Positions 1,850 to 63,438 are shown, counted from the stretch's first letter. The stretch: 64,000 nt of DNA from Lentisphaerota bacterium (GCA_016188985.1 JACPGM010000053.1:4290-68289); one strand, 5' to 3'. Notes: a model not told the origin generated them from the sequence alone. Translations and numbers: made by a program.

Positions 1850-1963
1850 AACTACGAAAAACGCGAAAGACACGAAAATGGGAATTGTAATTGCAATCAA
1901 ATTTCGCGTATTTCGCGCATTTCGTAGTTTCCACCTGAGGCGGATCCGCCAAGGGCGGAAATT
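1850..1963 (+). mobile_element. MITE-like repeat, family A (arms AACTACGAAA...TTTCGTAGTT), copy 1, with an abutting GGATCC palindromic unit
   Basis: aactacgaaaaacgcgaaag...tttcgcgtatttcgcgcatttcgtagtt forms a long inverted repeat. Homologous copies lie at 9234-9346 (inverted) and 53540-53643. Possible outer TIRs gtgactactcagc (about 1823) and gctgaatagttacg (about 1978). Confidence 0.7.
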
Positions 1964-2017
1964 GTTCTCTCCGATAGCTGAATAGTTACGAGCAATTATT
2001 ATTTGTGTTGAGCCAGG

Positions 2018-2659
2018 ATGAACACTATTCGCGCAGTTTTATTTGATTTTGACGGCACGCTGACCTTGCCGGGCAGCATTGATTTCATGGGCATCAAGCG
2101 CTCCATCCGCTGCCCGCGCGACGTGACGATCCTGGAGTTCATTGGGCGCTTGCAACCCGCCTCGGCCCGGCGCCGGGCTTGGGCCATCCTCCACCGGTTT
2201 GAAGATGAGGCCGCCCGGCGCAGTCGGCCGAACGAAGGCGCCGAGGACTTGGTCCGCTGCCTGAAACGGCGGCGCATTCGTCGCGGCATTCTCACGCGCA
2301 ACCGGCGCGTTTCGGTCGCTACAGCGCTTAAAAACTTTGCCCAGGTGCGCCTGGCTGATTTTACCGTGATTATTACCCGCGACCATGTTGAGCGGCCTAA
2401 ACCCGATCCCGAAGGAGTATTGCTGGCGGCGCGCCGCCTGAAAGTCAAGCCCAGTGAGTTGCTGGTCGTGGGGGACTACATCTATGACATCGAAGCGGGC
2501 AAAAGCGCCGGCGCGCGCACGGTTTTCCTGGAGAGCGAGTTCACTACCCGGCGGCCCGCTCCGCCCGCCGATTTTTCGATCCGGTCACTGAACGAAGTCG
2601 CCGGCCTTATTGACCGATTGAACCGTAGCCGCGGAAAGGCCCATAATGCTTCCGGATAG
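2018..2659 (+). CDS. HAD-superfamily hydrolase (phosphatase-like)
   Basis: Motif I 'VLFDFDGTLT' and the distal motif 'VVGDYIYDIEAGKSAG'. It sits between the permease and ATPase genes of the ABC system. Confidence 0.85.
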   Translation: MNTIRAVLFDFDGTLTLPGSIDFMGIKRSIRCPRDVTILEFIGRLQPASARRRAWAILHRFEDEAARRSRPNEGAEDLVRCLKRRRIRRGILTRNRRVSVATALKNFAQVRLADFTVIITRDHVERPKPDPEGVLLAARRLKVKPSELLVVGDYIYDIEAGKSAGARTVFLESEFTTRRPAPPADFSIRSLNEVAGLIDRLNRSRGKAHNASG

Positions 2660-2698
2660 AAGTTGTGTTTTTTGTGCTTCTTTGTGGCAAGATTTTTT

Positions 2699-3664
2699 AT
2701 GAATACTTCTGAAGTCCTTCTGGCCGTGGATAACTTAAGCGTCTTTTTCCGGACGCGGTCTGAGCCGATTCGGGCAGTGAATGGCGCATCGTTCAACATT
2801 GCATCGGGCGAGACCGTTGCGCTGGTCGGCGAGAGCGGCTGCGGCAAGAGCGTGACTGCCCTGGCGCTGACGCGCCTGGTGGCCGAGCCCGGCTACGTGG
2901 CCGGCGGCCGGATCCGGTTTGGCGGGCGCGACGTGCTGGCCATGGAACAGCGGCAGTTGCGCGATCTGCGCGGCGCGGAAATCGCTTATATCTTCCAGGA
3001 ACCGGCCGCCGCGCTTAATCCCGTATTCCGGGTTGGCTGGCAGATAGCGGAGTCTTTGCGTCTCCATCGCCGCGACATTGCGGTTCGCCAGGAAGTAATC
3101 CATCTGCTGAACCGGGTGGGCTTGAGCGATCCCGAGCATCGGCGCCGGGCCTATCCCCACGAGCTTAGTGGCGGCATGCAACAGCGCGTAATGATTGCCA
3201 TGGCCCTGGCTTGCCGGCCGCGCCTGCTGGTGGCCGATGAGCCTACTACCGCCCTGGATGTCACCATCCAGGCGCAAATTCTCGATCTGCTGACGCGCCT
3301 GCAGGGCGAACTGGGCATGGCGATCTTGCTGATTACCCACAATCTGGCGCTGGTGGCCGGCATTGCCCGGCGGGTCAACGTCATGTATGCCGGCCGGGTC
3401 GTGGAGTGGGGCTTGGCCGAAGACATTCTGCTGCAGCCGGCGCATCCTTATACCCGCGGACTTATGGCCGCCGTGCCGCGCTTAAGCGGGGGGACAACCC
3501 GCATGGCCGGAATTCCGGGCGCCGTGCCCAACCCCGCCCGGCTACCTTCGGGATGTCCCTTCCATCCGCGTTGCCCGAAAGCCCAGGCCCGTTGCTCCGT
3601 TGAAGATCCGTGTGATGAAAACATAACCGCGGAACATGGTGTCCGATGCCACTTCTGGAAATAG
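2699..3664 (+). CDS. Peptide ABC transporter ATP-binding protein (DppD/OppD-like)
   Basis: Walker A 'GESGCGKS', signature 'LSGGMQQRV', Walker B '[12 protein letters not shown]', and the C-terminal 'CPFHPRCP' Cys motif. ATG 2699 is preferred over the TTG at 2663. Confidence 0.9.
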
Positions 3665-4632
3665 CCGATTTACAGGTCTCCTTCAAATCAGGCCGCCGCC
3701 AGGAAGTGCGCGCGGTTGACGGTGTCTCGCTGGCGGTGGCCTCGGGCGAAAGCGTCGGCCTGGTGGGCGAGAGCGGCTGCGGCAAGAGCACGCTGGGCAA
3801 CACCATCTTGCGCCTGGTGCCGGCCTGCTCCGGCCAAATCCGGTTCGAAAACCAGGATGTCCTGGCGCTTGGCTGCGGCGATCTGTTCCGCTACCGCCGC
3901 CGCGCCCAGATGATTTTTCAAGACCCCTACGGCTCGCTCAACCCGCGCCTGACAATCGGCGCAGCAATTGAAGAATGCCTGGCGGTGCACCGGCTGGGCA
4001 ACCGGCTGGAACGCCGCGAGCGGGTGCGCCACCTGCTGGAGACCGTTGGACTCGAATCGGATTACGCCGCGCGATATCCCCACGAGTTCAGTGGCGGGCA
4101 ACGCCAGCGCGTGGGCATTGCCCGGGCCCTGGCGCTTGATCCAGTCTTCATCGTAGCCGATGAGCCGGTCTCGGCGCTGGATGTTTCGGTGCAAGCGCAA
4201 ATCCTGAACTTGCTTAAAGATCTCCAGCTCTCGCGCAACCTGGCCTATCTCTTCATTGCTCATGACCTTTCCGTGGTGCGCTATATGTGCAGCCGGGTGC
4301 TGGTCATGTATTTCGGCCGGATCGTCGAGGCGGCGGATGCCGCCGAGCTTTTTGCGCATCCGGCGCATCCTTATACCCGGACGCTGCTGGCCGCCGTGCC
4401 GGATATTGAGAGAGGATTGCGCGCCGCGCGCGCGCGCTCAGCGGTCGCGCAAGGCGAAGTACCCAGCGTCAGCACTGCGGTAGAAGGTTGTTCCTTCCAT
4501 CCCCGTTGCCCCTATGCCGAGGAGATCTGCCGAGAGCAGACGCCGAAAGACCACGAGGTCAGCCCGGGCCATACCAGCCGTTGCCATTTCGCCGGGACAA
4601 TAAGATTGCATCGGGGCATGATATCTCAGTAA
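3646..4632 (+). CDS. Peptide ABC transporter ATP-binding protein (DppF/OppF-like)
   Basis: 'GESGCGKST', 'FSGGQRQRV', 'FIVADEPVSALD' and 'CSFHPRCPYA'. It overlaps the upstream ATPase gene by 19 nt, which suggests translational coupling. Confidence 0.9.
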   Translation: MPLLEIADLQVSFKSGRRQEVRAVDGVSLAVASGESVGLVGESGCGKSTLGNTILRLVPACSGQIRFENQDVLALGCGDLFRYRRRAQMIFQDPYGSLNPRLTIGAAIEECLAVHRLGNRLERRERVRHLLETVGLESDYAARYPHEFSGGQRQRVGIARALALDPVFIVADEPVSALDVSVQAQILNLLKDLQLSRNLAYLFIAHDLSVVRYMCSRVLVMYFGRIVEAADAAELFAHPAHPYTRTLLAAVPDIERGLRAARARSAVAQGEVPSVSTAVEGCSFHPRCPYAEEICREQTPKDHEVSPGHTSRCHFAGTIRLHRGMISQ

Positions 4633-9233: not shown

Positions 9234-9346
9234 AACTACGAAATGCGCAAAATACGCGAAACTTTCAATATAATTTCATTTACCATTTTCGCGCCTTTTC
9301 CGCCTGAGGCGGATCTGCCTTAGGCATGACGCGTTTTTCGTAGTTT
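9234..9346 (-). mobile_element. MITE-like repeat, family A, copy 2 (inverted), carrying a nested GGATC palindromic unit
   Basis: The reverse complement matches copy 1 arm for arm. It differs by a ~32-nt insertion, ttccgcctgaggcggatctgccttaggcatga (9298-9329). Confidence 0.7.
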
Positions 9347-12062: not shown

Positions 12063-12225
12063 GCAAAACCGGCGGGACAAGGCTGTCCCGCCCTACCAAT
12101 GGGAAGATGTCCCGCCATAGGCGGGTCTGCCTATGGAATGAAAATCTGGCTTGCCGTCGTCCGGCAACAGCCGGACTATGGCTGAGCACGGTAGGGCCGC
12201 ACAGCCTGTGCGGCCGTTGGGACAG
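12063..12225 (+). repeat. Composite REP cluster, family B, copy 1
   Basis: Chain of palindromes: ggcgggacaaggctgtcccgcc, cccgccataggcggg and ggccgcacagcctgtgcggcc. It matches the reverse complement of 38121-38241 except for a ~44-nt extra unit at about 12147-12190. Confidence 0.75.
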
Positions 12226-14602: not shown

Positions 14603-14761
14603 GGTGAATTTGGTTCGAAAAAGGCGGCGGCGATCTTAGGCCGCCTGCAGGTTTTCCGCGCTTGCGCATACAAGAGTATAGCGCTGCGCGCGGCGCACCC
14701 GCATTCGGCCCGAGCTGGCCTTGCTTTTTCGAATCCGCCTTCGGCGGAAACCAAATTCACC
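14603..14761 (+). mobile_element. MITE-like repeat, family D, copy 1 (13-nt TIR GGTGAATTTGGTT)
   Basis: ggtgaatttggtt...aaccaaattcacc termini. The interior aligns along its length with the reverse complement of 26931-27092. Confidence 0.7.
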
Positions 14762-15077
14762 CCACGACTGCATCCGCCCGGCAAGCCGGGGGCTTGCCTG
14801 GCGGAAATAAAACTAGTTTTCGGCTAAAACATACACCAAAAACGTGTATCTTTACGGGAAAGCGTCTAAATAAATTTTTCGCCGGGCGAAAAATTTATGA
14901 TGCGCCTGCGGCGCACAGATGACTTTATGTTTTGGAATATTCTGCTATGTAGCTGCGCCCATGAGGGCGTGGATTTACCTGGCAGCCACGGCGTCACCGC
15001 CGCGGCTTGTTGTTAATTTTTCCGTAAGCCGCTAACCCGCGAAGGAAACCCAGGCTGGGCAACGTTAAGACTAAAAA

Positions 15078-19973: not shown

Positions 19974-21110
19974 ATGAAAACCGGGGAATCAGGCGTTGTA
20001 TTGGAGGCCGTCGTCATTTTTGGCGGTTTGGCCTGTATTCTGGCCGCCGGCATCTACGTGGCCGGCAGTTCCACCGTGGTCAGCTCGGCCCGGACCATCC
20101 GATTTGAAAAAGCTTTTCTGATTGCCGAAGCTGGCGCTGAACGGGCCAAGGCCGATCTGAGCACTAACGCTGATAATATCAACACTATCTTAACCGGCGC
20201 CGATGGCCTTACCAACACGTCCGACGACGGCATTTTAAGTTTTGGCGCCGCAGTGCCCTTTGGCGGCGGAGCCTTTTCCACACGGGTCTGGGACAACAAC
20301 GACAGCGATCCCAGCCTGTTCGTGGATACGGATTGGACGGTTATTATTCGCTCCACCGGTGCCTGTGAAAACGTTCAGCGGGTTTTGGAACTGGCCGTCA
20401 CGGTGTCTAACCCCCCAGCGCCGCCGGCCGATAGTGACGGGGCTTTGGCTATTTATGGGAGTAATACTACCGTGGATGTCGGCGGGAATTCGTCCATTAA
20501 TGGCAATGATTGGGGTGTGCCGGATGATTTTGATTGCACGGGGGCTGCCTGTGACGGCACGCTGACGACCAATCCGGCCGGGCCGGGCGTGTTTTCATCC
20601 ACCAACACCACGCCGACCATCGGCGGCTCGGCCGTCGTGGTGGGTGATCCGCCCGTAACCAATAATGCGACGGGCGACTATGATGCGCAGTATTGGCAAG
20701 CCCAGGTTGACTACTGGACGCCCTTGGCCTCCCTTTCAATCAGCGGCAGCGTTCCCAATGATGCTTACCTCGGGACGCGCGATAACCCGCAAGTTACGCT
20801 GGCTACAGGCGATGTCAATATTGATGGTAATGTGTCCGGGGCTGGTGTTCTTATTGTCCAGCCCGGCGTTGATATCACCATTGCCGGCACGTTTCATTAC
20901 GAAGGGCTGGTGATTCTCCTGGGCAATGTAACTTGCACGGCCCTGGGCACGGCCGACATATTTGGCGCCGTGACCGTCGTGGGTGGAGACAACAGTGTTT
21001 CTCTGAATGGGTTTCCGTCAATCAAATATAGCACCGAGGCGCTGGCCAATCTGGTTAACCTGCCCTTACCCGGCCCGCTCGCGGTGCAATACTGGCGCGA
21101 AATCAAATAA
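19974..21110 (+). CDS. PilX-N-like pilus-associated protein, tandem paralog 1
   Basis: An N-terminal hydrophobic helix is followed by 'FEKAFLIAEAGAERAKA' (PilX_N-type motif). The C-terminus is Gly/Asn/Thr-rich and repeat-like: 'GAGVLIVQPGVDITIAGTFHYEGLVILLGN'. Confidence 0.65.
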   Translation: MKTGESGVVLEAVVIFGGLACILAAGIYVAGSSTVVSSARTIRFEKAFLIAEAGAERAKADLSTNADNINTILTGADGLTNTSDDGILSFGAAVPFGGGAFSTRVWDNNDSDPSLFVDTDWTVIIRSTGACENVQRVLELAVTVSNPPAPPADSDGALAIYGSNTTVDVGGNSSINGNDWGVPDDFDCTGAACDGTLTTNPAGPGVFSSTNTTPTIGGSAVVVGDPPVTNNATGDYDAQYWQAQVDYWTPLASLSISGSVPNDAYLGTRDNPQVTLATGDVNIDGNVSGAGVLIVQPGVDITIAGTFHYEGLVILLGNVTCTALGTADIFGAVTVVGGDNSVSLNGFPSIKYSTEALANLVNLPLPGPLAVQYWREIK

Positions 21111-21200
21111 ACGTTGCGGGCTTCTTCCTTCCTACCAATCCGTTCCCAGCGGGTGCGTAGCGCCTCAGTTATTTGGGGTCGGCGATCCAAATGTCCTCAG

Positions 21201-21293
21201 CAAGCTGAGGCCCTACGTAGGGCGCGACCACGCCTCTGGCGTGGTAAACCTCGTGCCAGCCACGCGAAACGCGTGGTCGCGCCATTTTACCCC
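21201..21293 (+). repeat. ~92-nt repeat, family E, copy 1 (internal hairpin ggcgcgaccacgc...gcgtggtcgcgcc)
   Basis: Near-identical to 24482-24573 in the same orientation, with one c/t difference seen. Confidence 0.8.
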
Positions 21294-21458
21294 TAGATAA
21301 CTGAGACACGGGTCCCAACGGGTGCCAAAAACGGGCTTGACAGCAGCTTCCAATTAGATTAGTCTATTTTTGGTTAATGATTGAATTGGGTCTATTTACA
21401 TGGTTCCAAACCATATAAGTAGGGCCACAATAAGCGTTTCACGCGGGAAATGGGCCTC

Positions 21459-22595
21459 ATGAAAACCGAGCAATCCGGCTTTGCTTTAGTGATTGTCGTT
21501 ATCCAGGCCAGCCTGGCTTCAATCATGGCCGCCGGCCTGTACATGGCCAGCGGTTCTACGGTTGCCCGCGCCAACCGGACGCTTCATTTTGAAAAATCAT
21601 TTCTAATTGCCGAAGCGGGCGCTGAACGGGCCAAGGCCGTCCTGTCCACTAATGCTGATAATATCAACACTATCTTAACCGGCGCCGATGGCCTTACCAA
21701 CACCTGCGACGATGGCATTTTGAGTTTCGGCAACTCGGTGTCCTTTGCTGGCGGAGACTTTTCCGTGCTGGTCTCCGACAACGCTGACAGTAATCCCAGC
21801 CTATTCGTAGATACGGATAATACGGTCATTATCCGCACTACCGGCACCTATGAAAATGCCCGGCATGTGCTGGAATTGTCGGTCACGGTTACCAACCCGT
21901 CCGCCCCGCCGGCCGATACCGATGGCGCTCTGGCTATTTATGGAAGCAATGCTACGGTGAATGTTGGCGGCAGTGCGTCCATTGATGGCCGAGACTGGGC
22001 GGTCCCCGCTGATTTTGACTGCACGGGGGCCGGCTGCGACGGCGCGTTGACGACCAATGCGGCCGGGCCGGGCGTGTTTTCAGCTACCAACACGACAACC
22101 ATTAACGGCTCGAACAACATTGTGGGCAATCCGCCCGTGACCAATAATGCCGTCGGAGAGTATGACGAGCAATATTGGCAGGACCAGGTTGACTACTGGA
22201 CGCCCCTGGCTTCCCTTTCGATCAGCGGGAATGTGGCCAATGGCTCTTCCTTCGGGACGCGGACCAGTCCCCAGATTACCATTGTTACGGCCGACGCCAG
22301 TATTGCTGGCAATGTGGCTGGCGCTGGCGTGCTCATTGTCATGCCCGACGTTGATATCAGCATTTCGGGCACGTTCCATTATGAAGGGCTGGTGATTCTC
22401 CTGGGCGACGTGGTGTGTACGGCCCTCGGCACGGCCGACATATTTGGCGCTTTGGTGGCGCTTGGTGGGGAAAATAGTGTCACGCTGAATGGGCATCCGA
22501 ACGTCAAATACAGCACCCAGGCTCTGGCCAACCTGGCCAACATGGACGATTTACCTCCTCCGCTCTCGGTTCAATACTGGCGAGAAATTAAATAA
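21459..22595 (+). CDS. PilX-N-like pilus-associated protein, tandem paralog 2
   Basis: Collinear with 19974-21110 along its whole length, with the same N-terminus 'MKT..SG' and C-terminus 'VQYWREIK'. ATG 21459 was chosen by alignment to paralog 1. Confidence 0.65.
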   Translation: MKTEQSGFALVIVVIQASLASIMAAGLYMASGSTVARANRTLHFEKSFLIAEAGAERAKAVLSTNADNINTILTGADGLTNTCDDGILSFGNSVSFAGGDFSVLVSDNADSNPSLFVDTDNTVIIRTTGTYENARHVLELSVTVTNPSAPPADTDGALAIYGSNATVNVGGSASIDGRDWAVPADFDCTGAGCDGALTTNAAGPGVFSATNTTTINGSNNIVGNPPVTNNAVGEYDEQYWQDQVDYWTPLASLSISGNVANGSSFGTRTSPQITIVTADASIAGNVAGAGVLIVMPDVDISISGTFHYEGLVILLGDVVCTALGTADIFGALVALGGENSVTLNGHPNVKYSTQALANLANMDDLPPPLSVQYWREIK

Positions 22596-22640: not shown

Positions 22641-22735
22641 GTCATTCCGGGCTTTCCGCCTTGGGCGGATCCGCCTGTGGAGGAGACCCGGAATCCAGTT
22701 TTCCTGGTCTGGATTCCCGCCTGCGCGGGAATGAC
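22641..22735. repeat. GTCATTCC...GGAATGAC palindromic element (family S) with a nested GGATCC unit
   Basis: gtcattccggg[...]cccggaatccag...ctggattcccgcctgcgcgggaatgac. The bracketed 22654-22685 is a GGCGGATCCGCC unit. Related copies lie at 53166-53230, 55858-55989 and 59691-59774. Confidence 0.7.
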
Positions 22736-22763: not shown

Positions 22764-23492
22764 TCAGGAATTGAACTGCGTGTCGGCGTCTATCGGCAAC
22801 AGGGTCTGCAGGGCTTCGCGGGCCGCCGCCTGTTCGGCATCCCGCTTGCAGGCGCCCTGGCCGGTGCCCCAAACCTTGCCCGCGAGAGCGACCTCCACGG
22901 TGAAGATGCGCTCGTGCGGCGCCCCGTCCAGCTTGACAAGATGGTAAGCGGGATTTTTTTTCCAGCGCTGTTGGGCCAGCACCTGCAAGTGCCCCTTGGG
23001 ATTATCCCGCCAGTTGTCCTGCGGATGGATTTCGATCAGCGCCACGAACAGTTTTCGGAATATCCTGTCCACGGCTTTCAAGTCCCCATCCAGGTAAGCC
23101 GCGCCCAGGATTGCTTCCAGCGCATCGCCGATATTGGAAGCGCGCCGGTGGCCTCCGGAAGCCTGCTCGCCCTTGCCCAGTTTGATGGCTGCGCCCAGGT
23201 CAATCGAGGCGCCAATCCGGGCCAGGGCCTTGCCGCTGGTCAGACGGCTGCGCAGCAAGGTCAGCGGCCCTTCTTTGATCTCAGGATACATCCGGAACAG
23301 GTAATTGCTGGCTACCAGGCTTAAGGCCGCATCGCCCAGGAACTCCAAGCGCTGATTGTCGTTGCGGATCTCGGCGCTTTCATAGCGATAGGACCGGTGC
23401 AGCAGGGCGTTGGCCAGCAGTTCCCTGTTGCGGAAAGTATAGCCCAGCAATTTCTCCAGCGACCGATAAGGATTATGGAAGAATCGTCTCAT
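22764..23492 (-). CDS. rnc: Ribonuclease III
   Basis: Signature 'NQRLEFLGDAAL', a C-terminal dsRBD, and a length of 242 aa. Confidence 0.93.
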   Translation of the reverse strand: MRRFFHNPYRSLEKLLGYTFRNRELLANALLHRSYRYESAEIRNDNQRLEFLGDAALSLVASNYLFRMYPEIKEGPLTLLRSRLTSGKALARIGASIDLGAAIKLGKGEQASGGHRRASNIGDALEAILGAAYLDGDLKAVDRIFRKLFVALIEIHPQDNWRDNPKGHLQVLAQQRWKKNPAYHLVKLDGAPHERIFTVEVALAGKVWGTGQGACKRDAEQAAAREALQTLLPIDADTQFNS

Positions 23493-24376: not shown

Positions 24377-24481
24377 GGAGCAAGCACAAAAGAAAACGTC
24401 CAGTAATGGGTCGGTTACGCGGGGAATCGATCCCAATGGCCTCAGCCCGCCTGCAACGCTATGCGTAGCATTGCGGGCAGG

Positions 24482-24573
24482 CAAGCTGAGGCCCTACGTA
24501 GGGCGCGACCACGCCTCTGGCGTGGTAAACCTCGTGTCAGCCACGCGAAACGCGTGGTCGCGCCATTTTACCC
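24482..24573 (+). repeat. ~92-nt repeat, family E, copy 2
   Basis: See 21201-21293. It is immediately preceded by the 31-nt imperfect palindrome at 24450-24481. Confidence 0.8.
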
Positions 24574-24578
24574 TTTGC

Positions 24579-24890
24579 TTACGGCTTTGCCGCAACGGCG
24601 TTCGACGAGGCCGGGATGTCATTGGCGTCAAAACCGGCCCCGGCAATGGTGTACTCGATATTCTTGCGGGCAATAACCATGGAGTCATAAACGACCGTCA
24701 GGGTGCGCGCCTGGAAATCCGGCCGGATGGTTTTAATGCCCGGCTGACGCATAAAGGCTTCCTGGATAATCTGCGCGCAGGCCGGGTCTTTCAGGCCCGG
24801 CACGGCGATAGTCGCCTCACGAATATCATGTTGGCGGCAGCCAATCAGACTGATGATCAGCAGCACGACCGGCATAACTATTTTCCACAT
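24579..24890 (-). CDS. Lipoprotein with a degenerate heavy-metal-associated (HMA)-like domain
   Basis: Lipobox 'LLIISLIGC'. The beta-alpha-beta-beta-alpha-beta-like 'ATIAVPGLKDPACAQIIQEAFMRQPGIKTI...LTVVYD' has a single Cys rather than CxxC. Start 24890 was chosen because the longer ORF runs through a repeat. Confidence 0.5.
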   Translation of the reverse strand: MWKIVMPVVLLIISLIGCRQHDIREATIAVPGLKDPACAQIIQEAFMRQPGIKTIRPDFQARTLTVVYDSMVIARKNIEYTIAGAGFDANDIPASSNAVAAKP

Positions 24891-26781: not shown

Positions 26782-26816
26782 AATGCAGAATGCAGAATGC
26801 AGAATGCAGAATGCAG
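26782..26816. repeat. Heptamer satellite (AATGCAG)x5 directly after the ilvD stop
   Basis: Five perfect tandem units. A 3-unit variant follows the comF-like stop at 47782-47802. Confidence 0.85.
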
Positions 26817-45273: not shown

Positions 45274-45421
45274 CCCAACCCGCTGGGGCGCAACCTCTTT
45301 GGTCGTTGCGCGGCGTTCCACGCGAAGGACAATACCTTCCAGGTATTCCACCTTCGCGTGCGCCTTGCGCAATCGGCAATATAGGTTGCGACATTGTCAT
45401 AATATTTACGAAACAGAGCAC
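45274..45421 (+). repeat. Partial (right-half) copy of the 58663-58939 TIR element, upstream of a sulfatase gene
   Basis: About 148 nt collinear with 58791-58939. Three hairpins are conserved, for example cacgcgaagg..aatacct-tcc-aggtatt..ccttcgcgtg. Confidence 0.75.
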
Positions 45422-47781: not shown

Positions 47782-47802
47782 AATGCAGAATGAAGAATGC
47801 AG
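47782..47802. repeat. Heptamer satellite variant (AATGCAG AATGAAG AATGCAG) directly after the comF-like stop
   Basis: Same unit as 26782-26816. It is followed at about 47860-47915 by AATCC(G/A)AAATC-type low-complexity repeats, which also occur at about 45028-45072. Confidence 0.75.
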
Positions 47803-47921
47803 AAACAGGCCGACGGACGCCAGAGGCCAGGCGCCAGATGTCGGAACTGATGTCGGAAATCAGCAATCCGTAATCCAAAATCCAAAATTAGAATAATCCG
47901 CAATCCGAAATCGAAACAATT

Positions 47922-49006: not shown

Positions 49007-49561
49007 ATGGTTTGGAGTAATCAACAGAATATTCGCTCGCGATCGTTCACTTGCGGCTACTGTGGCAACGTTGTCGCGTCCGGTGTTGGCTTTCTTCACC
49101 ACAATGACCTGGACAAACGCGTACACATCTGCCCACATTGTGATGAGCCGTCGTACATCACAAGCAAGAAGCAGGTTCCGGGTGTTGCGCCTGGCAATGA
49201 GATAGCGGCCCTTCCCGACGACATCGAGGCCCTTTACAAGGAGGCGCGCAACAGCGTCGCTGCGTCCGCCCACACAGGCGCCGTGCTGTTGTGCCGCAAG
49301 ATACTGATGAACACTGCGGTCTCGCAAGGTGCGCCTCAGAATCAGTCATTCCTCGACTATGTTCAGTACCTGGCCGATAACGGATATGTCCCACCAAAGG
49401 GCAAGGGCTGGGTAGACCATATCCGGAAGAAGGGAAACGAGGCTACACACGAGATCAAAGCCATGGGCAAGACCGACTCAGAGGAGCTCATTCTCTTTGT
49501 TGAGATGCTGTTGAAGTTCATTTATGAGTTTCCGAGTAAGATTCCTGCGAACAAGCCATGA
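49007..49561 (+). CDS. Zinc-ribbon + DUF4145 domain protein
   Basis: N-terminal 'CGYCGN...CPHCDE'. The C-terminal 'LDYVQYLADNGYVPPKGKGWVDHIRKKGNEATHE' fits the DUF4145 pattern. Confidence 0.8.
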   Translation: MVWSNQQNIRSRSFTCGYCGNVVASGVGFLHHNDLDKRVHICPHCDEPSYITSKKQVPGVAPGNEIAALPDDIEALYKEARNSVAASAHTGAVLLCRKILMNTAVSQGAPQNQSFLDYVQYLADNGYVPPKGKGWVDHIRKKGNEATHEIKAMGKTDSEELILFVEMLLKFIYEFPSKIPANKP

Positions 49562-49630
49562 CCTGCTGCCTAACAACGGCTTGCAGCGGAGGCCGCCGCG
49601 GCAGAAACCGTGTCGAGTAAGGCCGGAGGA

Positions 49631-50527
49631 TCAATATGTGAGGAGGAGGCGATCATGGACGACCTCATCCTCAAGCGATTCGCCCTCTCTCTGAAAACGC
49701 CGCAGCATGCTTCTGCCGCAATCCAAGAACACTTCTCGCTCAAATAGACCGTCCGGGATTCCCAGTTTACAGTCCACGCGACCGGATTTCTTTTTGCCGT
49801 CAATACTTAGGGCAACCCGAACACCGCGTGTCTTGCAGTAGGCAATGGCGCGCATCAACCGCTGCAAAGAGAAGTCTTGCCCCCGGTACAAGATTGCCTG
49901 ACTACAGACATAGGGCGGGTCGCAGTACACAAGATCTCTCTCCTTGGCCAGAGACATAGCCTCTTCAAAGTCCATCTGCCGGAAGTCCGCCCCTGCCGTC
50001 CGCCGCAGCCATATGTCAACACGCTGCGCGAATGATCCCGGCGCGATAGGGTCGTGAATGCCGCATGGCGTCGAAATGTACCCATCGCTCTTGCGAAACC
50101 GGACAACCCCTCCGTAGCAACTCCGGCAAATGAACAAGAGATCAGGGCCATTCGGCTTGGCGTTGTAGTTTGCCTTTATCTGCTCGTATCCAGCCGGTTT
50201 GCCTAATTCTCGGAATTCGGTGTACCGACTTCTGTACCACTCCGCGAGTTGGTTGGGGGAATCGTGAAGACACCGCCAAATCTCCATGAGCGGGCCGCAG
50301 ATATCGGAACCCACGGCAGCCGGAGGCTGAAGTGCTGCAAGAACGGCCCCACTTCCCAGGAACGGCTCCCGATATGTGTGAATGTCTGTCGGGAAAAACG
50401 ACGCTATCTTGTGAGCAAACCGTTGCTTGTTCCCTATCCACTTTAGAAGCTGGGTCTTGAACGGAGCCACGTGCTGGAACTCAGTTCCGTAGAACAGATC
50501 GAGAGTATCTTCTTCTTTGACTTTCAT
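49631..50527 (-). CDS. N6-adenine DNA methyltransferase, Dam/D12 class (RM-associated)
   Basis: 'LKWIGNKQR', motif I 'EPFLGSGAV' and motif IV 'YCDPPYV'. The start at 50527 leaves a 59-nt divergent control region. The longer ORF to 50569 is possible. Confidence 0.85.
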   Translation of the reverse strand: MKVKEEDTLDLFYGTEFQHVAPFKTQLLKWIGNKQRFAHKIASFFPTDIHTYREPFLGSGAVLAALQPPAAVGSDICGPLMEIWRCLHDSPNQLAEWYRSRYTEFRELGKPAGYEQIKANYNAKPNGPDLLFICRSCYGGVVRFRKSDGYISTPCGIHDPIAPGSFAQRVDIWLRRTAGADFRQMDFEEAMSLAKERDLVYCDPPYVCSQAILYRGQDFSLQRLMRAIAYCKTRGVRVALSIDGKKKSGRVDCKLGIPDGLFEREVFLDCGRSMLRRFQREGESLEDEVVHDRLLLTY

Positions 50528-50537
50528 GACGTGCCTA

Positions 50538-50561
50538 CAATATCCCGATTTGGGATTATTG
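50538..50561. promoter_or_regulatory. Candidate C-box/operator palindrome between the divergent methylase and controller genes
   Basis: caatatccc-gattt-gggattattg has imperfect 9-10-nt arms. A TATACT -10-like box (50574-50579) lies 7 nt before the GTG at 50587. Confidence 0.3.
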
Positions 50562-50586
50562 TCAACCATATTATATACTCCCTCAC

Positions 50587-50832
50587 GTGAAACACAACAG
50601 GTATGCGGCTAACGAGGAACATCTGCGGAGCTTGCTCCGGCAGAAACGAATACAGTGTGGCTTGACACAGGCCGCACTGGCGATTGTTCTTCGGAAACCC
50701 CAGTCCTTCGTAAGCAAGTACGAATCAGGGGAACGGCTTCTGTCGTTTGTCGAAACCATCGACGTCTGCCGAGCGCTGAACATCGACCCACGAACACTTC
50801 TCAAGGAGTATCTGCCACATCATGATGCCTGA
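50587..50832 (+). CDS. XRE-family HTH controller (C) protein of the RM system
   Basis: 'LRQKRIQCGLTQAALAIVLRKPQSFVSKYESGERLLSFVE' is a Cro/C1-type HTH. Length 81 aa. It overlaps the downstream endonuclease candidate by 11 nt. Confidence 0.75.
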   Translation: MKHNRYAANEEHLRSLLRQKRIQCGLTQAALAIVLRKPQSFVSKYESGERLLSFVETIDVCRALNIDPRTLLKEYLPHHDA

Positions 50833-51655
50833 CAAGAGATTTGTTGGCCTGCCGAAGCGGTTTTGGGCACTTGTCCGCCTGAGCGGACAGGAGTGCGGTT
50901 ATGCGAGTCAAGGCCAGATTACCATCCCAACGCGAGAAGCCGTGGCAGATGCCCTCACAACATTGGGACTGGTGCCCTCTGCCCTGGACACGCCTTTGCG
51001 GGGTGGTGGCACATGGAAGACACTCCTCGATTACTTCACGTTTCGGCGGGACCTGCTCCACCAGCATGTGGAACCCAACCTCATGGACGCTCCGCAGGCC
51101 AAGAAGGAGTTCGCCCGCCTCAAGCGCGAGTTGAAGCCGAGATGCCCGCTTCCTATGAACAAGCAGAAGGGGACAAAGAGGGCTCCCGCGTACCTGACTG
51201 GTATCGTAAACATGCTGATCGAGGCGAACGCTGCAGGCAAGCCGTGCGACTACGATCCGCGTGCGCTTACCACGGTTGCGGTCAACAGCGCGCCATTGCG
51301 CACTTTTGCACGCCGCATGGATGGCGCTTTTCCTTCTGTCATCAACCCAATCGCCGTGTGGGAAGTGAAAGAGTACTACTACACCACGACCTTCGGCAGC
51401 CGCGTAGCAGACGGTGTCTACGAGACGCTGCTCGACGGAATGGAGATCGAAGAACTCGTAGTGTCTGAGAAAGTTAACGTCCTTCACTACCTCATGATCG
51501 ACGCACGGTACACATGGTGGGACTGCGGGAAGTCGTACCTCTGCCGGGTGATCGACATGCTCCACATGGGCTACGTCGATGAAGTCCTTGTCGGCCGGGA
51601 AGTCCTCGCGCGTCTGCCAGTTCTTGTGAAGAAATGGACACGGAAGATGGCCTAA
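50822..51655 (+). CDS. Putative type II restriction endonuclease (assigned by context)
   Basis: It is coupled to the C gene and divergent from the methylase. 'RRMDGAFPSVINPIAVWEVKEYY' gives a D-X13-ExK arrangement compatible with PD-(D/E)XK. I recognise no family. Confidence 0.55.
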   Translation: MMPDKRFVGLPKRFWALVRLSGQECGYASQGQITIPTREAVADALTTLGLVPSALDTPLRGGGTWKTLLDYFTFRRDLLHQHVEPNLMDAPQAKKEFARLKRELKPRCPLPMNKQKGTKRAPAYLTGIVNMLIEANAAGKPCDYDPRALTTVAVNSAPLRTFARRMDGAFPSVINPIAVWEVKEYYYTTTFGSRVADGVYETLLDGMEIEELVVSEKVNVLHYLMIDARYTWWDCGKSYLCRVIDMLHMGYVDEVLVGREVLARLPVLVKKWTRKMA

Positions 51656-53063: not shown

Positions 53064-53165
53064 AACTTGGTTTTTCGTAACTGTTCAGGCACCATATCGG
53101 AAGTTGCCTGTCCTGTTCAGGCCAGGGACATTTTTACCACGGATATCCTGGGGGCACTGATTTCT

Positions 53166-53230
53166 GTCATTCCCATGAAAATGGGAATCCAGTTTCGCAT
53201 TTTCTGGATTCCCGCTTCCGTGGGAATGAC
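53166..53230. repeat. GTCATTCC...GGAATGAC palindromic element (family S)
   Basis: gtcattcccatgaaaatgggaatccag...ctggattcccgcttccgtgggaatgac. Confidence 0.7.
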
Positions 53231-53293: not shown

Positions 53294-53376
53294 GCCGGGG
53301 TGGCGAAATGGCAGACGCGCCGGACTCAAAATCCGGTGGTGGCAACACCATGAGGGTTCAAGTCCCTCCTCCGGCA
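53294..53376 (+). tRNA. tRNA-Leu (anticodon CAA)
   Basis: Hand-folded. Acceptor GCCGGGG/CTCCGGC (one G-U pair), D-arm GTGGCGAAATGGCAGACGC, anticodon stem ccgga/tccgg with loop cuCAAaa, long variable arm tggtggcaacaccat, and T-arm gaggg-ttcaagt-ccctc. CCA is not encoded. Confidence 0.9.
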
Positions 53377-53390
53377 CTATTTATTATTGC

Positions 53391-53463
53391 GTGGTGGCAA
53401 CACCATGAGGGTTCCCCGCCGGAGGCTGGTCCGCCTAAGGCGGAAAGTCCCTCCTCCGGCACT
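53391..53463 (+). pseudogene. Duplicated 3' half of tRNA-Leu, interrupted by a ~30-nt palindromic unit
   Basis: gtggtggcaacaccatgagggtt + [ccccgccggaggctggtccgcctaaggcgga] + aagtccctcctccggcact repeats tRNA positions about 53337-53379. There is no 5' half. Confidence 0.7.
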
Positions 53464-53539: not shown

Positions 53540-53643
53540 AACTACGAAATGCGCGAATGGACGCGAAACAATTTTTAATGGGCTTATTTCGTGTTTTTAG
53601 CGTGTTTCGTAGTTTCCGCCTGTGCGGATCCGCCGGGGCGGAA
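53540..53643 (+). mobile_element. MITE-like repeat, family A, copy 3, with an abutting GGATCC unit
   Basis: aactacgaaatgcgcgaatggacgcgaaa...tttcgtgtttttagcgtgtttcgtagtt, followed by ttccgcctgtgcggatccgccggggcggaa. Confidence 0.7.
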
Positions 53644-55834: not shown

Positions 55835-56029
55835 CCCCTCAGTCTTGTGGGCTTATTGTCATTCCCGACCTGATGCTACTCTGCGAAGTTCCGCCATAGC
55901 GGATCCGCCTTCTGGCGGAAAGCCTCCCTGCTCTGCGAAGCCGCTACGCAGGGCGTAGAAGAGTCGCTACGAAGCACGAGGGGAATGACAGTGTTGATGT
56001 TCACGACCTACCCACAAGACTGAGGCCTT
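55835..56029. repeat. Nested palindromic element (outer arms ccctcagtcttgtggg/cccacaagactgagg; inner GTCATTCCC...GGGAATGAC; central GGATCC unit)
   Basis: The outer arm cccacaagactgaggcc recurs at about 61037-61056. The inner S-type arms are at 55858 and 55989. The central unit is at 55889-55920. Confidence 0.7.
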
Positions 56030-56600: not shown

Positions 56601-56924
56601 GAATCATCGAACAAAGCGGCGGAAGCTATCGCCCCGCAAGGCGGGGCTCAGCCTCAACGCTGACGTCGGTTAACGATGTGCTGATGAAAAAGTTAAGGCA
56701 GTTGTAAAATTCAGGCATGGTTCAAAACCCCGTGGTTTCAGGTTCCGCCGGAGGCGGATCTGCCTCAGGCATGAAACAATTCTCGCATGGAGATGGAGGG
56801 CGGACCTCCGTGTCCGCCGCGGCGATGACGGAGCATCGCCCTCCATGACGCATGCAGTCCGATACCTTGAATTGAACCAAGCTAAAATTCATAACGGAAC
56901 AACCGATAGGCAAGGAGGTGTGAT

Positions 56925-58662: not shown

Positions 58663-58939
58663 GTGCTCAGATTCGTAAATATTATGACGAATGATTGTGT
58701 CCATTTTTGCGCAGGGCCAGGCGGCGAAAGCGGAGGCGTACCTGAAAGGTCCGTGCGGCTTTCGCCAACGCCGCCCGGCCCAAAAATGGGCCCAACCCGC
58801 TTGGGCGCAACCTCTTTTGCCGTTGCGCCGTGTTCCACGCGAAGGGAAAATACCTTCCAGGTATTCCACCTTCGCGTGCGCCTTGCGCAATCGGCAAAAT
58901 AGGTTGCGTCATTGTCATAATATTTATGAAACTGAGCAC
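58663..58939 (+). mobile_element. 277-nt MITE-like element with ~30-nt terminal inverted repeats, filling the spacer between convergent genes
   Basis: Left end gtgctcagattcgtaaatattatgacgaatg. Right end cattgtcataatatttatgaaactgagcac. The right half is collinear with 45274-45421. Confidence 0.75.
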
Positions 58940-59774: not shown

Positions 59775-59787
59775 GCCTTATTATCCA

Positions 59788-61043: not shown

Positions 61044-61074
61044 AAGACTGAGGCCATACCCTAAAGATATTTGC

Positions 61075-62439
61075 TCAACCCGGCCGCACACACGGTTGCG
61101 GAGAGGCAACCCAACCGGCCGGCCTCTGATTTGCCCCGTCACGACCCAAATCACCCAGGTCCGCTCGGGCACGCCCGGCAAGCGCCAGCAATCTTGCGAC
61201 AACCTCAGGATATTGGGCGGATACTTCGCGCGTTTCCGAAATATCGTCCCGCAAGTTATACAGTTCGGCGGCGGCGCCGGAGCAGCCTTTTGTCTCGGCT
61301 TGCAGATTGCGCAGCTTCCGATCGAGCGCAAGATAGAGCTTCCATGGACCGGAGCGCACGGCCTGCAACTGGTGCATGTAATAATAAAAAAAACCGCAAT
61401 CGTCATACGGCGATGCCACAACCGTGTTTCCCTGGAGAATCGGTCTGATATCGTGGCCGTCAATAATACGGTCCGCGGGAGTATCCGCTCCGGCCAGGCG
61501 GGCAACCGTCGGCAATACATCCATCATGGTTACGATTCGGTCGTCAATGACGTTGGCGGGAACACGGCCGGGCCAACGCGCAATGCACGGCACGCGCTGG
61601 CCGCCTTCGGACGTGTCATAGCCCCACCCGCGCAAAGGCGCGTTGCTGCCTTGCGGGGGATCCCAGCGGACGGCGCCGTTATCCGAGGTCCACAAGACGA
61701 GCGTTTTTTCGTCGAGATCGAGTTCCGCCAGAGTTTGCATGATCTGGCCGCACGACCAGTCAAGTTCCTCCACGGCGTCGCCGTAGGGGCCGTTGGCGGA
61801 CCGCCCCTGAAAAGCGGGAGAGGCGAAAGGCCGCTCCGTGCTGCCCGGCATGGCCTGCGCCAAATAAAGGAAGAAGGGACGGTCGGCGTTCTCCCGTATG
61901 AAGCTGATGGCTTCCTCAGTGTAGCGCCTGGTAAGCGTGTCGCGCTCGGCCGGCGCCTCGACCACCTTTTCGCCGCGCATCAGGGGCAGCGGCGGCCGGT
62001 CCGGTGCAAACGCGGTGGGAACCATGTCCTCGCTGTAGGGACAACCGAAAAACCGATCGAAACCATGGCGCGTCGGCAGAAACGGAAGTTGGTCGCCGAG
62101 ATGCCACTTGCCGATGCACGCCGTGGCGTAACCCTTGGCCTTCAACAGCCGCGCCAGGGTAATCTCGCCTGGATTCAGGCCCTTCGGATCAATGGGCATG
62201 AGCACGGCCTGGCCGCGCCCGGCAACGTGCATATTGATGCGCCGCGGGTAACATCCGGTCATCAGACTCGCGCGGGAGGGCGTGCACACGCCGCTCGTGC
62301 TGTAAAAACTGGTGAAGCGCAGGCCTTGCCGGGCCAGGCCATCAACCTGCGGCGTGCGGTGCTGCCGCGATCCATAGCATCCCAGGTCTCCATAACCCAG
62401 GTTGTCCATCAACATTATAATGACATTGGGTTGATTCAT
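61075..62439 (-). CDS. Sulfatase (formylglycine-dependent)
   Basis: 'NVIIMLMDNLGYGDLGCYGS', 'CTPSRASLMTG' (CxPxR) and 'GKWHLG'. Confidence 0.9.
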   Translation of the reverse strand: MNQPNVIIMLMDNLGYGDLGCYGSRQHRTPQVDGLARQGLRFTSFYSTSGVCTPSRASLMTGCYPRRINMHVAGRGQAVLMPIDPKGLNPGEITLARLLKAKGYATACIGKWHLGDQLPFLPTRHGFDRFFGCPYSEDMVPTAFAPDRPPLPLMRGEKVVEAPAERDTLTRRYTEEAISFIRENADRPFFLYLAQAMPGSTERPFASPAFQGRSANGPYGDAVEELDWSCGQIMQTLAELDLDEKTLVLWTSDNGAVRWDPPQGSNAPLRGWGYDTSEGGQRVPCIARWPGRVPANVIDDRIVTMMDVLPTVARLAGADTPADRIIDGHDIRPILQGNTVVASPYDDCGFFYYYMHQLQAVRSGPWKLYLALDRKLRNLQAETKGCSGAAAELYNLRDDISETREVSAQYPEVVARLLALAGRARADLGDLGRDGANQRPAGWVASPQPCVRPG

Positions 62440-62966
62440 GTTCTCCTGACGGCAGGTTCGTGCGTCTTTTTTAGCATTTCGTTTTTTTCCCAGGGGAAGA
62501 CCAGCCAGATATTGGCGGCGGCCGCGCGGGCGTAAAAGTCTGGCGGGCCGCCGCGGCCACGTTTGTAATAGAGCGTGGCGGTCTTCAGGGTGCGTGGTTT
62601 CCGGCGCTTGAGCCGCCGGACTATTTCTTGCAAAGTCTGGCCGGAGTCGTGGACGTCGTCAACCAGCAACACGTTCTTGTGGTTTAGGGAATACCGGAAA
62701 GGTTCGATCTGCACGCGGGCAAGTTGGCGAACGCCCTCTTGCCGGGGCGTAGCGCTTCCGCCTTCGCGGAGCCTGGCATAGGCCTTGGCGCGCAGGGGAT
62801 AGATGTTAATTGCGCCGAAAAAATCGGCGAGCAGCCGCGCCGGCACCAACCCGCCCTGTAGGACCGCCACGACACAATCCGGTTGGAACCGCGCGGCGCG
62901 AACCGCCCGAGCTACCTTGGCCACACAGGCTTCAATTTCGCGCCAGGAGATGTTCCGGTATTTCAT
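62436..62966 (-). CDS. Phosphoribosyltransferase family protein
   Basis: 'VLLVDDVHDSGQTL' PRPP-binding loop. There is a 4-nt overlap with the downstream sulfatase gene. Confidence 0.8.
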   Translation of the reverse strand: MKYRNISWREIEACVAKVARAVRAARFQPDCVVAVLQGGLVPARLLADFFGAINIYPLRAKAYARLREGGSATPRQEGVRQLARVQIEPFRYSLNHKNVLLVDDVHDSGQTLQEIVRRLKRRKPRTLKTATLYYKRGRGGPPDFYARAAAANIWLVFPWEKNEMLKKTHEPAVRRT

Positions 62967-63029
62967 AGCGGGTTTTTATCCAACGTGGGCTCCGCCCGCA
63001 ACCCAAATAAAACAATAAAACAAACCTTA

Positions 63030-63198
63030 CCACGGAGACACGGAGAGAAAAATTCTCCTCCCAGGTTCTCTTCCAACCAATCGGTGCGCGCATCCCGAGG
63101 CGCGCTTACGCGCGCTCGGGATGCGCGCACCGCTCCTGTGGGGAGCCGGAAGAGATTAAGAAGACGGAGTCATTCTCCGTCCCTCCGTGCCTCCGTGG
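63030..63198. repeat. Nested palindromic element between divergent genes (outer arms ccacggagacacggagag/ctccgtgcctccgtgg; inner ~22-bp-stem hairpin 63083-63131)
   Basis: The inner hairpin is ggtgcgcgcatcccgaggcgcgc-tta-gcgcgctcgggatgcgcgcacc. The outer arms are imperfect inverted repeats. Confidence 0.7.
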
Positions 63199-63438
63199 TG
63201 AATCCTCTCTTGCTTTACATCTTCTTGTTTTTTACCGCGGTTCCTGATGTATCAGGCTCTAAAGTAGTGCGATGTCCGCAACCGAAAAATTTTCGCCATG
63301 CGCGGATCCGCACAGGCGGACCCCCGCGCAGCGCGGGATGACAGGGATGACCTGGGATACGAATGGTCAAGGCATTGACAATTGTCCGGCGACCGTCAAC
63401 AATCAGTGCTATCAGTGCCATCCGTGGCAGGTAATTAC

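Follow-up and report, generated by a model that had tools for sequence, protein, structure and literature searches.

A 30-bp double-hairpin unit in a Lentisphaerota contig and its probable spread as mobile DNA among uncultured bacteria

Background

Among the described systems closest in general form to the element considered here is that of repetitive extragenic palindromic (REP) sequences, with the arrangements known as bacterial interspersed mosaic elements (BIMEs) and REPINs and the REP-associated tyrosine transposases (RAYTs). These are short, GC-rich, intergenic palindromes present in many copies, which leave no target duplication and are thought to be recognised as a folded single strand; REPIN/RAYT systems are lineage-specific and vertically inherited. 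The chemistry of RAYTs, like that of the IS200/IS605 insertion sequences, depends on hairpins and proceeds without target duplication. In a REPtron, a RAYT gene is flanked by the REPs of its own genome. Most REP families carry a GTAG or CGTC tetranucleotide at one end of the hairpin (PMC3733652), and occasional copies lie in frame inside genes (PMC3733652; PMC3116915). The subject of this report is a palindromic unit that recurs in 64,000 nt of a contig from a Lentisphaerota bacterium (GCA_016188985.1, JACPGM010000053.1:4290-68289), a stretch called the window throughout. The unit comprises two tandem GC-rich hairpins only, and we regard it as probably a 30-bp non-autonomous mobile element, spread horizontally and moved by an enzyme acting in trans.

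In overall character the unit most resembles the small dispersed repeats (SDRs) of cyanobacteria and the double-hairpin or GC-cluster elements of mitochondria, though its sequence is unrelated to either. Its behaviour is that of a REP or an RPE-type palindrome (see below), yet it departs from REPs in two defining traits, the tag and the confinement to a lineage. The SDRs, which Elhai and colleagues reportedly described in 2008 from heterocyst-forming cyanobacteria, are said to be hairpin units of about 20-30 nt, apparently mobile and nested in other repeats and in each other. Their sequence differs from that of the unit, and they are restricted to one cyanobacterial group. Mitochondrial GC clusters, the Allomyces double-hairpin elements and the yeast 'byp' elements are tiny GC-rich double hairpins that invade AT-rich genomes, including protein and rRNA genes, and they are not known to encode an enzyme. 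They differ from the unit in being organellar, in having unrelated sequences and in not being shared between distant lineages, and some need translational bypassing where the unit, judged from its reading frame, would simply be translated.

Miniature inverted-repeat transposable elements, too, are non-autonomous, symmetric through inverted repeats and mobilised in trans, but they are 50-400 bp long, carry the terminal inverted repeats of a parent insertion sequence and make a target-site duplication, whereas the unit has 30 bp and makes none. Elements derived from IS200/IS605 have subterminal hairpins, with cleavage sites and guide tetranucleotides lying outside these, and insert 3' of a fixed tetra- or pentanucleotide on one strand. 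The unit would fit this pattern in its two similar hairpins, its lack of duplication and, in one variant, a bulged T; it does not fit in that its hairpins reach both ends, which leaves guides no room, and in that its flanks are constrained symmetrically. The Rickettsia palindromic elements (RPEs) are about 100-150 bp long and confined to Rickettsia and relatives. Here the likeness is that of a palindrome in frame within protein genes, in the present case, on the predicted reading, those for valyl-tRNA synthetase (ValRS), PheT, aspartyl-tRNA synthetase (AspRS), ribosomal protein S5, UvrC and leucyl-tRNA synthetase (LeuRS). RPEs lie in frame in functional protein genes, including those of tRNA-related enzymes, and the added peptide is tolerated (summary in PMC3733652). 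The unit is set apart from RPEs by its 30-bp length, unrelated sequence, stop-free consensus and spread across phyla. No description of it, as GGCGGATCCGCC or as the peptides GGSASGG and RLRGND, was found in the searchable literature.

The unit and its copies in the window

Comparison of copies side by side defines the window unit as two tandem hairpins, TCCGCC-N3-GGCGGA-TCCGCC-N3-GGCGGA, 30 nt in all, with 6-bp stems and 3-nt loops. The hairpins abut without spacer or tail, and the unit measures 30-31 bp. A preliminary description of this DNA had recognised the palindrome correctly, but had drawn it with four-nucleotide spacers around a GCGGATCYGCC core, for which the two short stems and 3-nt loops must be substituted. 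Within the window, the full pattern with at most 3 mismatches occurs 4 times, as against 0.00 expected in shuffles, and the single hairpin TCCGCC-N3-GGCGGA with at most 1 mismatch occurs 8 times as against 0.53.

A covariance model (R1), built from an alignment of 42 units (A4) and run unfiltered over the window, yields ten full units and two half units. All eight copies previously listed are present where they had been placed and are recovered by the model, seven of them with E ≤ 4e-8 and that at 63292-63320 only at 11 bits. The earlier list was incomplete, however, missing the copies at 12111-12141 (+) and 38163-38193 (-); a half unit reported near 14733-14750 is indeed there, at 14734-14748, but a second one at 14773-14805 had been passed over.

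Several copies sit in or against larger repeats. Family A, present in three copies (1850-1929, 9234-9345 and 53540-53614), forms an inverted doublet that reads AACTACGAAA...TTTCGTAGTT and bears GTAG, a typical REP tag. Family S reads GTCATTCCC...GGGAATCCAG...GGGAATGAC and is found in the window at 22641-22735, 53160-53228 and about 55866-55995. A composite repeat of about 87 nt, 93% identical between its copies at 12063-12150 (+) and 38154-38241 (-), consists of a GGCGGGACA..TGTCCCGCC hairpin, then CTACCAATGGGAAGAT, then a unit. The units themselves are as follows, with strand given where one is assigned.

1930-1959: unit, symmetric type, one stem mismatch (TCCACC); 46.8 bits; abuts the right end (GTAGTT) of the family A element 1850-1929
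9299-9329, + strand: unit, asymmetric type, TCCGCC-TGA-GGCGGA-TCTGCC-TTA-GGCATGA, stems intact; 50.3 bits; in the right arm of the family A element 9234-9345
12111-12141, + strand: unit, newly found, CCCGCC-ATA-GGCGGG-TCTGCC-TAT-GGAATGA; 33.7 bits, E 2e-9; in the composite repeat of about 87 nt
14734-14748: half unit, single hairpin TCCGCC-TTC-GGCGGA; pattern match and covariance model
14773-14805: second half unit, TCCGCC...GGCGGA, whose loop holds a nested 21-nt palindrome (CGGCAAGCC-GGGG-GCTTGCC-T); covariance model
22655-22684: unit, symmetric type, one stem mismatch (GGAGGA); 45.3 bits; in the first-hairpin loop of the family S element 22641-22735
38163-38193, - strand: unit, newly found, CCCGCC-ATA-GGCGGG-TCTGCC-TAT-GGCATGA; 37.4 bits, E 1e-10; composite repeat as at 12111, just upstream of aspS
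53415-53444: unit, exact 30-nt insert CCCGCCGGAGGCTGGTCCGCCTAAGGCGGA, no target duplication; in the duplicated tRNA-Leu 3' half; covariance model
53615-53642: unit, two 1-nt deletions; about 31 bits; abuts the right end of the family A element 53540-53614
55890-55919: unit, one deletion and one insertion; 31.3 bits; inside a larger GTCATTCCC...GGGAATGAC palindromic element (about 55866-55995)
56744-56774, + strand: unit, asymmetric type, stems intact; 48.8 bits; equals the 9299 copy except in the loops, flanks unrelated
63292-63320: diverged unit, TTCGCC-ATGC-GCGGATCCGC-ACA-GGCGGA; 11.4 bits, E about 0.05

All of these copies are intergenic on a codon-bias map of open reading frames (ORFs), and most lie downstream of genes. 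They fall into at least two sub-families, and the sub-families recur in other phyla. The copies at 9299 and 56744 have a derived second hairpin in common (TCTGCC-N3-GGCATGA) and identical stems between unrelated flanks, a pattern that fits the variant itself having been copied. Stems are intact in only two of the ten full units, the others carrying about 1 to 5 changes or indels, and the window copies thus look like older insertions, most of them decayed; the suggestion that the unit is active or recently active in this genome is not upheld. The two copies of the composite repeat lie sense-upstream of genes, DUF1015 at 12261 and aspS (start 38138), and the composite might be a shared 5' leader.

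Filled and empty sites

That the unit enters pre-existing DNA can be read from sites that are found both filled and empty. In the window the reference is a tRNA gene and its partial duplicate.

53294-53377, + strand: intact tRNA-Leu(CAA), T-loop GGGTTC^AAGTCC, the empty site; Rfam and alignment
53391-53463, + strand: duplicated tRNA-Leu 3' half, its T-loop split by a unit; alignment to the intact tRNA

Relative to the intact gene, the duplicate is longer by exactly 30 nt, placed between GGGTTC and AAGTCC, and the two sequences agree over 24 nt on one side of this block and 19 on the other. Only one placement of the junction is possible, and hence no target base was duplicated. The duplicate comprises the 3' 43 nt of the gene, begins 13 nt after tRNA-Leu(CAA), and looks like the scar of a former integration at the tRNA. 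In a relative (L123) tRNA-Leu is present without the duplicated half.

The other repeats tell a similar story. The family S copy at 22641 has about 31 extra nucleotides in its first-hairpin loop compared with the copy at 53160, and the family A copy at 9234-9345 has about 31 extra in its right arm compared with the other two. In these other two family A copies a unit abuts the same end (GTAGTT|TCCGCC), and they may represent one duplicated composite rather than two separate insertions. Nesting of the unit in family A, in family S and in the tRNA-Leu 3' half, as originally proposed, survives alignment in all three cases.

Outside the window, an unrelated metagenome-assembled genome (MAG; locus L065) has a tRNA-Ser(UGA) fragment with 30 + 30 nt inserted at the anticodon loop, CTTG^AAAA. 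The two units are nested, the inner lying in loop 2 of the outer (TTG^GG), and the site is empty in the intact tRNA-Ser gene 370 nt downstream. Between the 46-nt 5' tRNA-Ser(UGA) fragment and the intact gene lies an 83-aa GIY-YIG ORF, and this stretch (L065 7380-7835) looks like a small cassette integrated in a tRNA gene. Units can themselves be entered in loop 2, by a palindrome of about 20 nt in L009 (897-951), a contig of the candidate phyla radiation (CPR), and by about 30 nt in L091 (6302-6365), so nesting runs in both directions.

Comparison of orthologous spacers, which the preliminary description had called for, gave one near relative without the unit. In this genome (from a metagenome scan; FolC 75% identical in amino-acid sequence) folC and tRNA-Leu(CAA) are present with neither duplicated tRNA half nor unit, though the spacer is unalignable and the comparison accordingly weak. 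The contig with the closest LeuRS (L120) also has no unit, and its synteny with the window is lost beyond the adjacent DUF1015 gene.

The original contention that copies arose by insertion and not through shared ancestry of their flanks is supported by the window, where filled sites differ from empty ones by exactly 30 nt, by the L065 tRNA-Ser gene, and by the ValRS and LeuRS genes considered below.

The target site

In the tRNA-Leu, L065 and ValRS pairs the insertion is an exact 30-nt block with unambiguous junctions and no duplicated base, and it mostly occurs at TTN^NAA, a T-rich followed by an A-rich trinucleotide. A catalogue of insertion contexts had been proposed earlier, and this motif without target duplication is its outcome. 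Among perfect units in the matches listed from a genome scan (see below), T occupies positions -3, -2 and -1 in 31, 41 and 31 of 46 units, and A occupies +1, +2 and +3 in 28, 36 and 29 of 47. Of these 47 units, 32 have both T at -2 and A at +2, 14 have one of the two and 1 has neither, in loci with an A+T content of 53%. The flanks belong to the target and not to the element, because they are seen at empty sites: orthologues lacking the insert in ValRS protein P0121 read F|N there, that is TTY^AAY, and the intact tRNAs read TTC^AAG and TTG^AAA.

Landing sites include spacers, other palindromic repeats, tRNA fragments, copies of the unit itself and protein-coding genes. A preference for hairpin loops, suggested by the tRNA T-loop and family S, is not a general rule, since flank complementarity over 61 units is 3.23, compared with 3.06 ± 0.14 after shuffling.

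In-frame copies inside genes

Neither the entry of the unit into genes nor its distribution across phyla had figured in the preliminary description. In open frames 200 or more codons long, all 18 units with 30 or more codons of the frame on each side are in phase 0, which reads TCC GCC nnn GGC GGA TCC GCC nnn GGC GGA and gives S-A-x-G-G-S-A-x-G-G; the unit being a palindrome, the peptide is the same in either orientation. Ten codons make up the consensus, and all six of its frames are free of stops; a stop codon arises only where certain triplets occupy a loop, as TGA does in two window copies. Host proteins, recognised by conserved motifs, include ValRS, PheT (with two units), AspRS, UvrC, ribosomal protein S5 and an S-adenosylhomocysteine hydrolase-like protein.

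Among 120 ValRS homologues, 5 have the unit, at 4 different sites. In P0163 an exact ten-codon block interrupts the conserved EGRNRF-x-IPRE stretch and is absent from 14 orthologues, the DNA reading AGG GTT | 30 nt | GAG ATT where an orthologue has CGC TTC | CAT ATC. Two other proteins, P0121 and P0207, share an insert at the same site: third-codon positions of the flanks are identical at 17 of 42 places, and the unit at 29 of 30, the sole difference being a loop base. This conservation would have one of three sources: a hot spot entered recently and in parallel, other copies serving as donors in conversion, or selection for the structure of the DNA or RNA. P0163 and P0207 were found through the peptide and not the DNA pattern, and both have perfect stems.

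In LeuRS, a site after SIQNxExTL in Kiritimatiellia orthologues is empty in the window protein and three others and holds in-frame blocks in six. Four of the six blocks read as family S (VIPDLIGNP...DSHFRGND), and one of these carriers (P0019) has the unit in addition, in another phase (FPPRADPPVAE), its DNA placing the unit in the loop of a further hairpin. Kiritimatiellia LeuRS proteins contain other in-frame blocks of 10 or 30 residues, in P0008 (A3 columns 274-283), P0001 (819-828) and P0029 (about 835-864), and these (DPPVAKAMGG, RPASAEAMAG and others) look like translations of further small GC-rich palindromes. Several small palindromic families may invade genes in the Kiritimatiellia lineage.

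Folding of the hairpins

Two folds are open to the consensus, a single long hairpin, which ViennaRNA favours, and a pair of short ones; as single-stranded DNA the consensus has a free energy of -13.1 kcal/mol (z = -4). Natural variation speaks for the two short ones. The pair 18-28 is C-G in 52 copies, T-A in 12 and broken in 5 (Fisher 3e-11, though copies are not independent events). In alignment A4 the tandem model keeps this pair in 11 of 12 variant sequences, as against 12 mismatches plus G-U pairs under the long-hairpin model, and the single long hairpin was rejected on the sub-family substitutions, with which it breaks the 18-28 pairing. Another pair shows compensation as well: T1-A15 has become C1-G15 at 12111, 38163 and 53415 and in L065. 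The central GGATCC is not required, in that sub-families carry GGGTCT or GGATCT with the pairing kept. The retention of pairing across sub-families implies that selection reads two folded hairpins, i.e. single-stranded nucleic acid.

Distribution across phyla

A scan of one genome per species used the pattern TCCGCC-N{3,4}-GCGGATCYGCC, which covers the left two thirds of the unit. Matches were found at no fewer than 117 loci, with at least 47 complete units having perfect stems and at least 23 further units having a single mismatch in the right arm. For the 24 specified bases, about 0.004 chance matches are estimated in 596 Gb.

Perfect units among the matches listed carry the labels CPR/Patescibacteria, Omnitrophota, Kiritimatiellia, Verrucomicrobiota, Lentisphaeria, Planctomycetota and Elusimicrobia, and further labels in the same set are Ignavibacteriota, Bacteroidota, Gammaproteobacteria, Bacillota, Firestonebacteria and Zixibacteria. 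This amounts to at least 12 labelled phyla, the labels being those of MAG record titles, and the GC content of the loci listed runs from 33 to 63%. Bona fide copies have so far all been in MAGs or single-amplified genomes (SAGs), one of them a closed long-read chromosome (L089); matches in isolate genomes (Streptomyces, Cupriavidus etc.) mostly have no recognisable right arm and look like chance.

Sub-families travel as well. The asymmetric type with its bulged T, found twice in the window, occurs in six MAGs labelled as other groups (Uhrbacteria, Firestonebacteria, Verrucomicrobiota, Planctomycetota, Patescibacteria and the closed chromosome of an unclassified bacterium), and the CCCGCC...GGCGGG form is also present in a Eubacteriales MAG.

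A phage or plasmid vector was considered and set aside: perfect units occur in only 2 IMG/VR contigs, GenBank phages gave no match to the unit, and the matches from cultured-bacterial plasmids were all partial and marginal (E ≥ 0.3), with no full unit among them. On one IMG/VR contig (L122 384-1820) a group II intron reverse-transcriptase-like ORF ends in ...SALGGSASGGK, its C-terminus being supplied by a unit.

The search for a mobilising enzyme

A Pfam scan of the 57 ORFs in the window found no transposase, in agreement with the earlier statement that no mobilising enzyme is encoded there; the only recombinase is a XerC/D-like integrase at 23489-24484. Otherwise the scan returned ordinary housekeeping genes, sulfatases and a small defence or toxin-antitoxin island, and Rfam 15, with the gathering score as threshold, matched only tRNA-Leu in the whole window.

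Two candidate links outside the window gained no support. The GIY-YIG ORF beside the L065 units has no homologue in any other locus. With three approximate Y1/RAYT queries, tblastn gave one match, in L009 (a Parcubacteria contig of the CPR), where the gene is flanked by a different repeat. The L009 protein is a Y1_Tnp (Pfam, 28.5 bits) and the sole Y1 transposase in about 0.8 Mb of unit-bearing loci. Its flanking repeats, GTAACGCACT...GTGCGTCATTCC...GGAACGAC (3740-3925 and 4475-4545), have a GTCATTCC motif that recalls family S and not the unit. Family S itself, which is found elsewhere at L119 2130-2330 and L012 4640-4660 and in frame in the related Kiritimatiellia LeuRS genes, may be a RAYT-linked family, to judge from the GTCATTCC-tagged hairpin beside the L009 gene.

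How the unit may have spread

The reading that best accommodates these results is that the unit is a non-autonomous mobile element, 30 bp long and made of its two hairpins alone. An enzyme acting in trans would recognise the folded hairpins on single-stranded DNA and move the unit; copies that land in phase 0 would survive in coding DNA, the inserted peptide being small and flexible; and the element would have spread horizontally among uncultured bacteria of many phyla. The leading candidate for the enzyme would be an HUH/Y1 transposase, of IS200/IS605 or RAYT-like type. The lack of target duplication, the hairpin dependence and the bulged T of the asymmetric type resemble those systems; the symmetric target, the missing guide sequence and the identity across phyla do not. 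A bolder version of this proposal, in which a selfish 30-bp element is currently active across much of uncultured bacterial diversity and is inserted bluntly and without duplication at TTN^NAA by an undescribed enzyme or mechanism, is a possibility that we put forward only tentatively.

Several observations weigh against mobility of this kind. No mobilising enzyme was found, the window lacks a transposase, and no RAYT flanked by the unit occurs in the window or in the unit-bearing loci examined. All-against-all BLAST of 2,998 ORFs from 122 loci likewise found no family recurring beside units, ribosomal-operon synteny excepted. The IS200/IS605 mechanism as known does not accommodate symmetric TT^AA flanks or hairpins with no guide sequence beyond them. 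Movement is inferred by comparing paralogous or orthologous sites, no polymorphism within a population having been observed; of five window proteins used to seek contigs of the same species, one led to a contig, of 1.5 kb, which ends before the unit is reached. Two pairs account for the covariation, and very few mutational events may lie behind them; the conserved stems of the 47 copies from the genome scan are owed in part to the exactness of the search pattern; and the phylum labels rest on MAG bins.

The principal alternative is that the unit is an ordinary REP or REPIN family of BIME type, and that in each host a RAYT encoded at another place in the genome mobilises it in trans. The form of the unit is in keeping with this, it being an imperfect palindrome in the 20-40 bp range, GC-rich, in many copies that in the window are intergenic and mostly downstream of genes (in other genomes many are intragenic), with conserved hairpin pairing and no target duplication. 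REPs within genes are on record too, including aminoacyl-tRNA synthetase genes and the Planctomycetes-Verrucomicrobia-Chlamydiae (PVC) bacterium Opitutus terrae (PMC3733652). One unit-bearing CPR contig, L009, does encode a Y1_Tnp between hairpin repeats, and the asymmetric-type end GGCATGAC, which is GTCATGCC on the other strand, resembles the GTCATTCC start of those repeats and of family S. That said, the units of the 42-unit alignment start with (T)TCCGCC and end with GGCGGA(A) or GGCATGA(C), with no GTAG or CGTC tag at either end, a tag that most REP families possess (PMC3733652). Both flanks are constrained together in a symmetric TT^AA target, the L009 RAYT is flanked by a different sequence, and the window encodes no RAYT. 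The same unit is found in at least 12 labelled phyla and not in one species or genus, as would be expected of lineage-specific, vertically inherited REPIN/RAYT systems. We therefore consider this explanation unlikely, and the preliminary assignment of the unit to RAYT-mobilised REP/BIME elements is not sustained.

An improbable alternative is that there is no dedicated transposase and that host processes spread the unit, through template switching, replication errors at hairpins, gene conversion or recombination with acquired fragments. The failure to find an enzyme is in keeping with this, as are the insert of the P0121/P0207 ValRS pair, far better conserved than its flanks as conversion or homogenisation would have it, and the larger composites, which were clearly duplicated as blocks (12111/38163; L012). 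However, the exact 30-nt blocks lie at unrelated sites without flanking homology, conversion requires homology on two sides, and a sequence-specific activity is indicated by a target preference and by ends that stay the same from phylum to phylum.

It is more doubtful still that the unit is a functional cis-element kept or re-created by selection, such as a protein-binding site, terminator, mRNA stabiliser or methylation/restriction site at GGATCC/GATC. The mostly 3' intergenic position of window copies, the stability of the hairpins as single-stranded DNA and a D12-class (Dam-like) methyltransferase gene at 49631-50569 could be cited for it. Against this, the unit lies in frame in many unrelated essential genes, at non-homologous positions, as identical DNA in loci of 33-63% GC. 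On both strands its flanks are T-rich 5' and A-rich 3', the reverse of an intrinsic (Rho-independent) terminator; the sub-families swap GGATCC for GGGTCT or GGATCT while keeping the pairing; and no Rfam family matches it.

An assembly, adapter or linker artefact, or contamination common to metagenome assemblies, is hardly credible even though the core resembles a BamHI linker and bona fide copies are confined to MAGs and SAGs, with no full unit in isolate matches, cultured plasmids or GenBank phages, because loops vary and sub-families exist, window copies are decayed and nested in host repeats, inserts fall exactly between codons of conserved genes, and many laboratories and platforms have produced assemblies with the unit, among them chromosomes closed with long reads (L089 is one).

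If the unit is confirmed as a mobile element, a sequence of 30 bp would exist nearly unchanged across a dozen phyla, which is hard to reconcile with lineage-private REP-like repeats and a domesticated transposase; such sharing points to a trans-acting activity. Were it a selfish element active at present, no mobile DNA known from bacteria would be smaller or more widely shared; a consensus open in six frames would allow it to colonise essential genes, adding a Gly/Ser/Ala loop, and its positions would chart naturally where core proteins accept insertions. Where in-frame copies lie in aminoacyl-tRNA synthetases, ribosomal proteins and repair enzymes, these proteins would tolerate a flexible loop of ten residues. 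There are consequences for annotation as well, since the unit and its companion repeats create spurious small ORFs, and the ten-residue blocks that they add to core proteins in CPR and PVC MAGs might be mistaken for insertions peculiar to a lineage. Shared sub-families could mark DNA exchange within groundwater and sediment communities.

The host and other features of the window

The window LeuRS is at most 82% identical to MAG proteins labelled Verrucomicrobiota or Kiritimatiellia, and its best cultured match is that of Tichowtungia aerotolerans (66%). These matches indicate an uncultured member of the PVC group as host, probably of the Kiritimatiellia.

Between 29300 and 36100 the GC content is lower (0.525), and this region has genes of defence or toxin-antitoxin type, encoding a protein with a PIN domain, one with Schlafen AlbA_2 plus HATPase_c_4, a helicase resembling those of Schlafen group 3 and an AbiEi antitoxin. 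Within it, about eight tandem copies of a 14-nt unit (GTTCGGGAAAGAAG-like) at 32006-32128 lie at the 3' end of the ORF 31009-32304. At 49007-51655 the D12-class (Dam-like) N6-adenine methyltransferase gene (49631-50569, minus strand) stands between those for DUF4145 and DUF7690/DUF7687 proteins, and the group may be a restriction-modification or defence module; the symmetric type of the unit contains GATC.

Paralogous genes of 378 and 381 aa, with no Pfam match and about 77% DNA identity, lie at 19974-21110 and 21450-22595, downstream of two N_methyl (pilin-like) genes. Other repeats of the window are a 102-nt sequence, 95% identical between 21200-21301 and 24481-24582, and one of about 150 nt, 91-95% identical between 45274-45421 and 58791-58939, of which one copy is just upstream of a sulfatase gene. 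Short arrays of the heptamer AATGCAG directly follow two unrelated genes, at 26782-26821 and 47782-47807.

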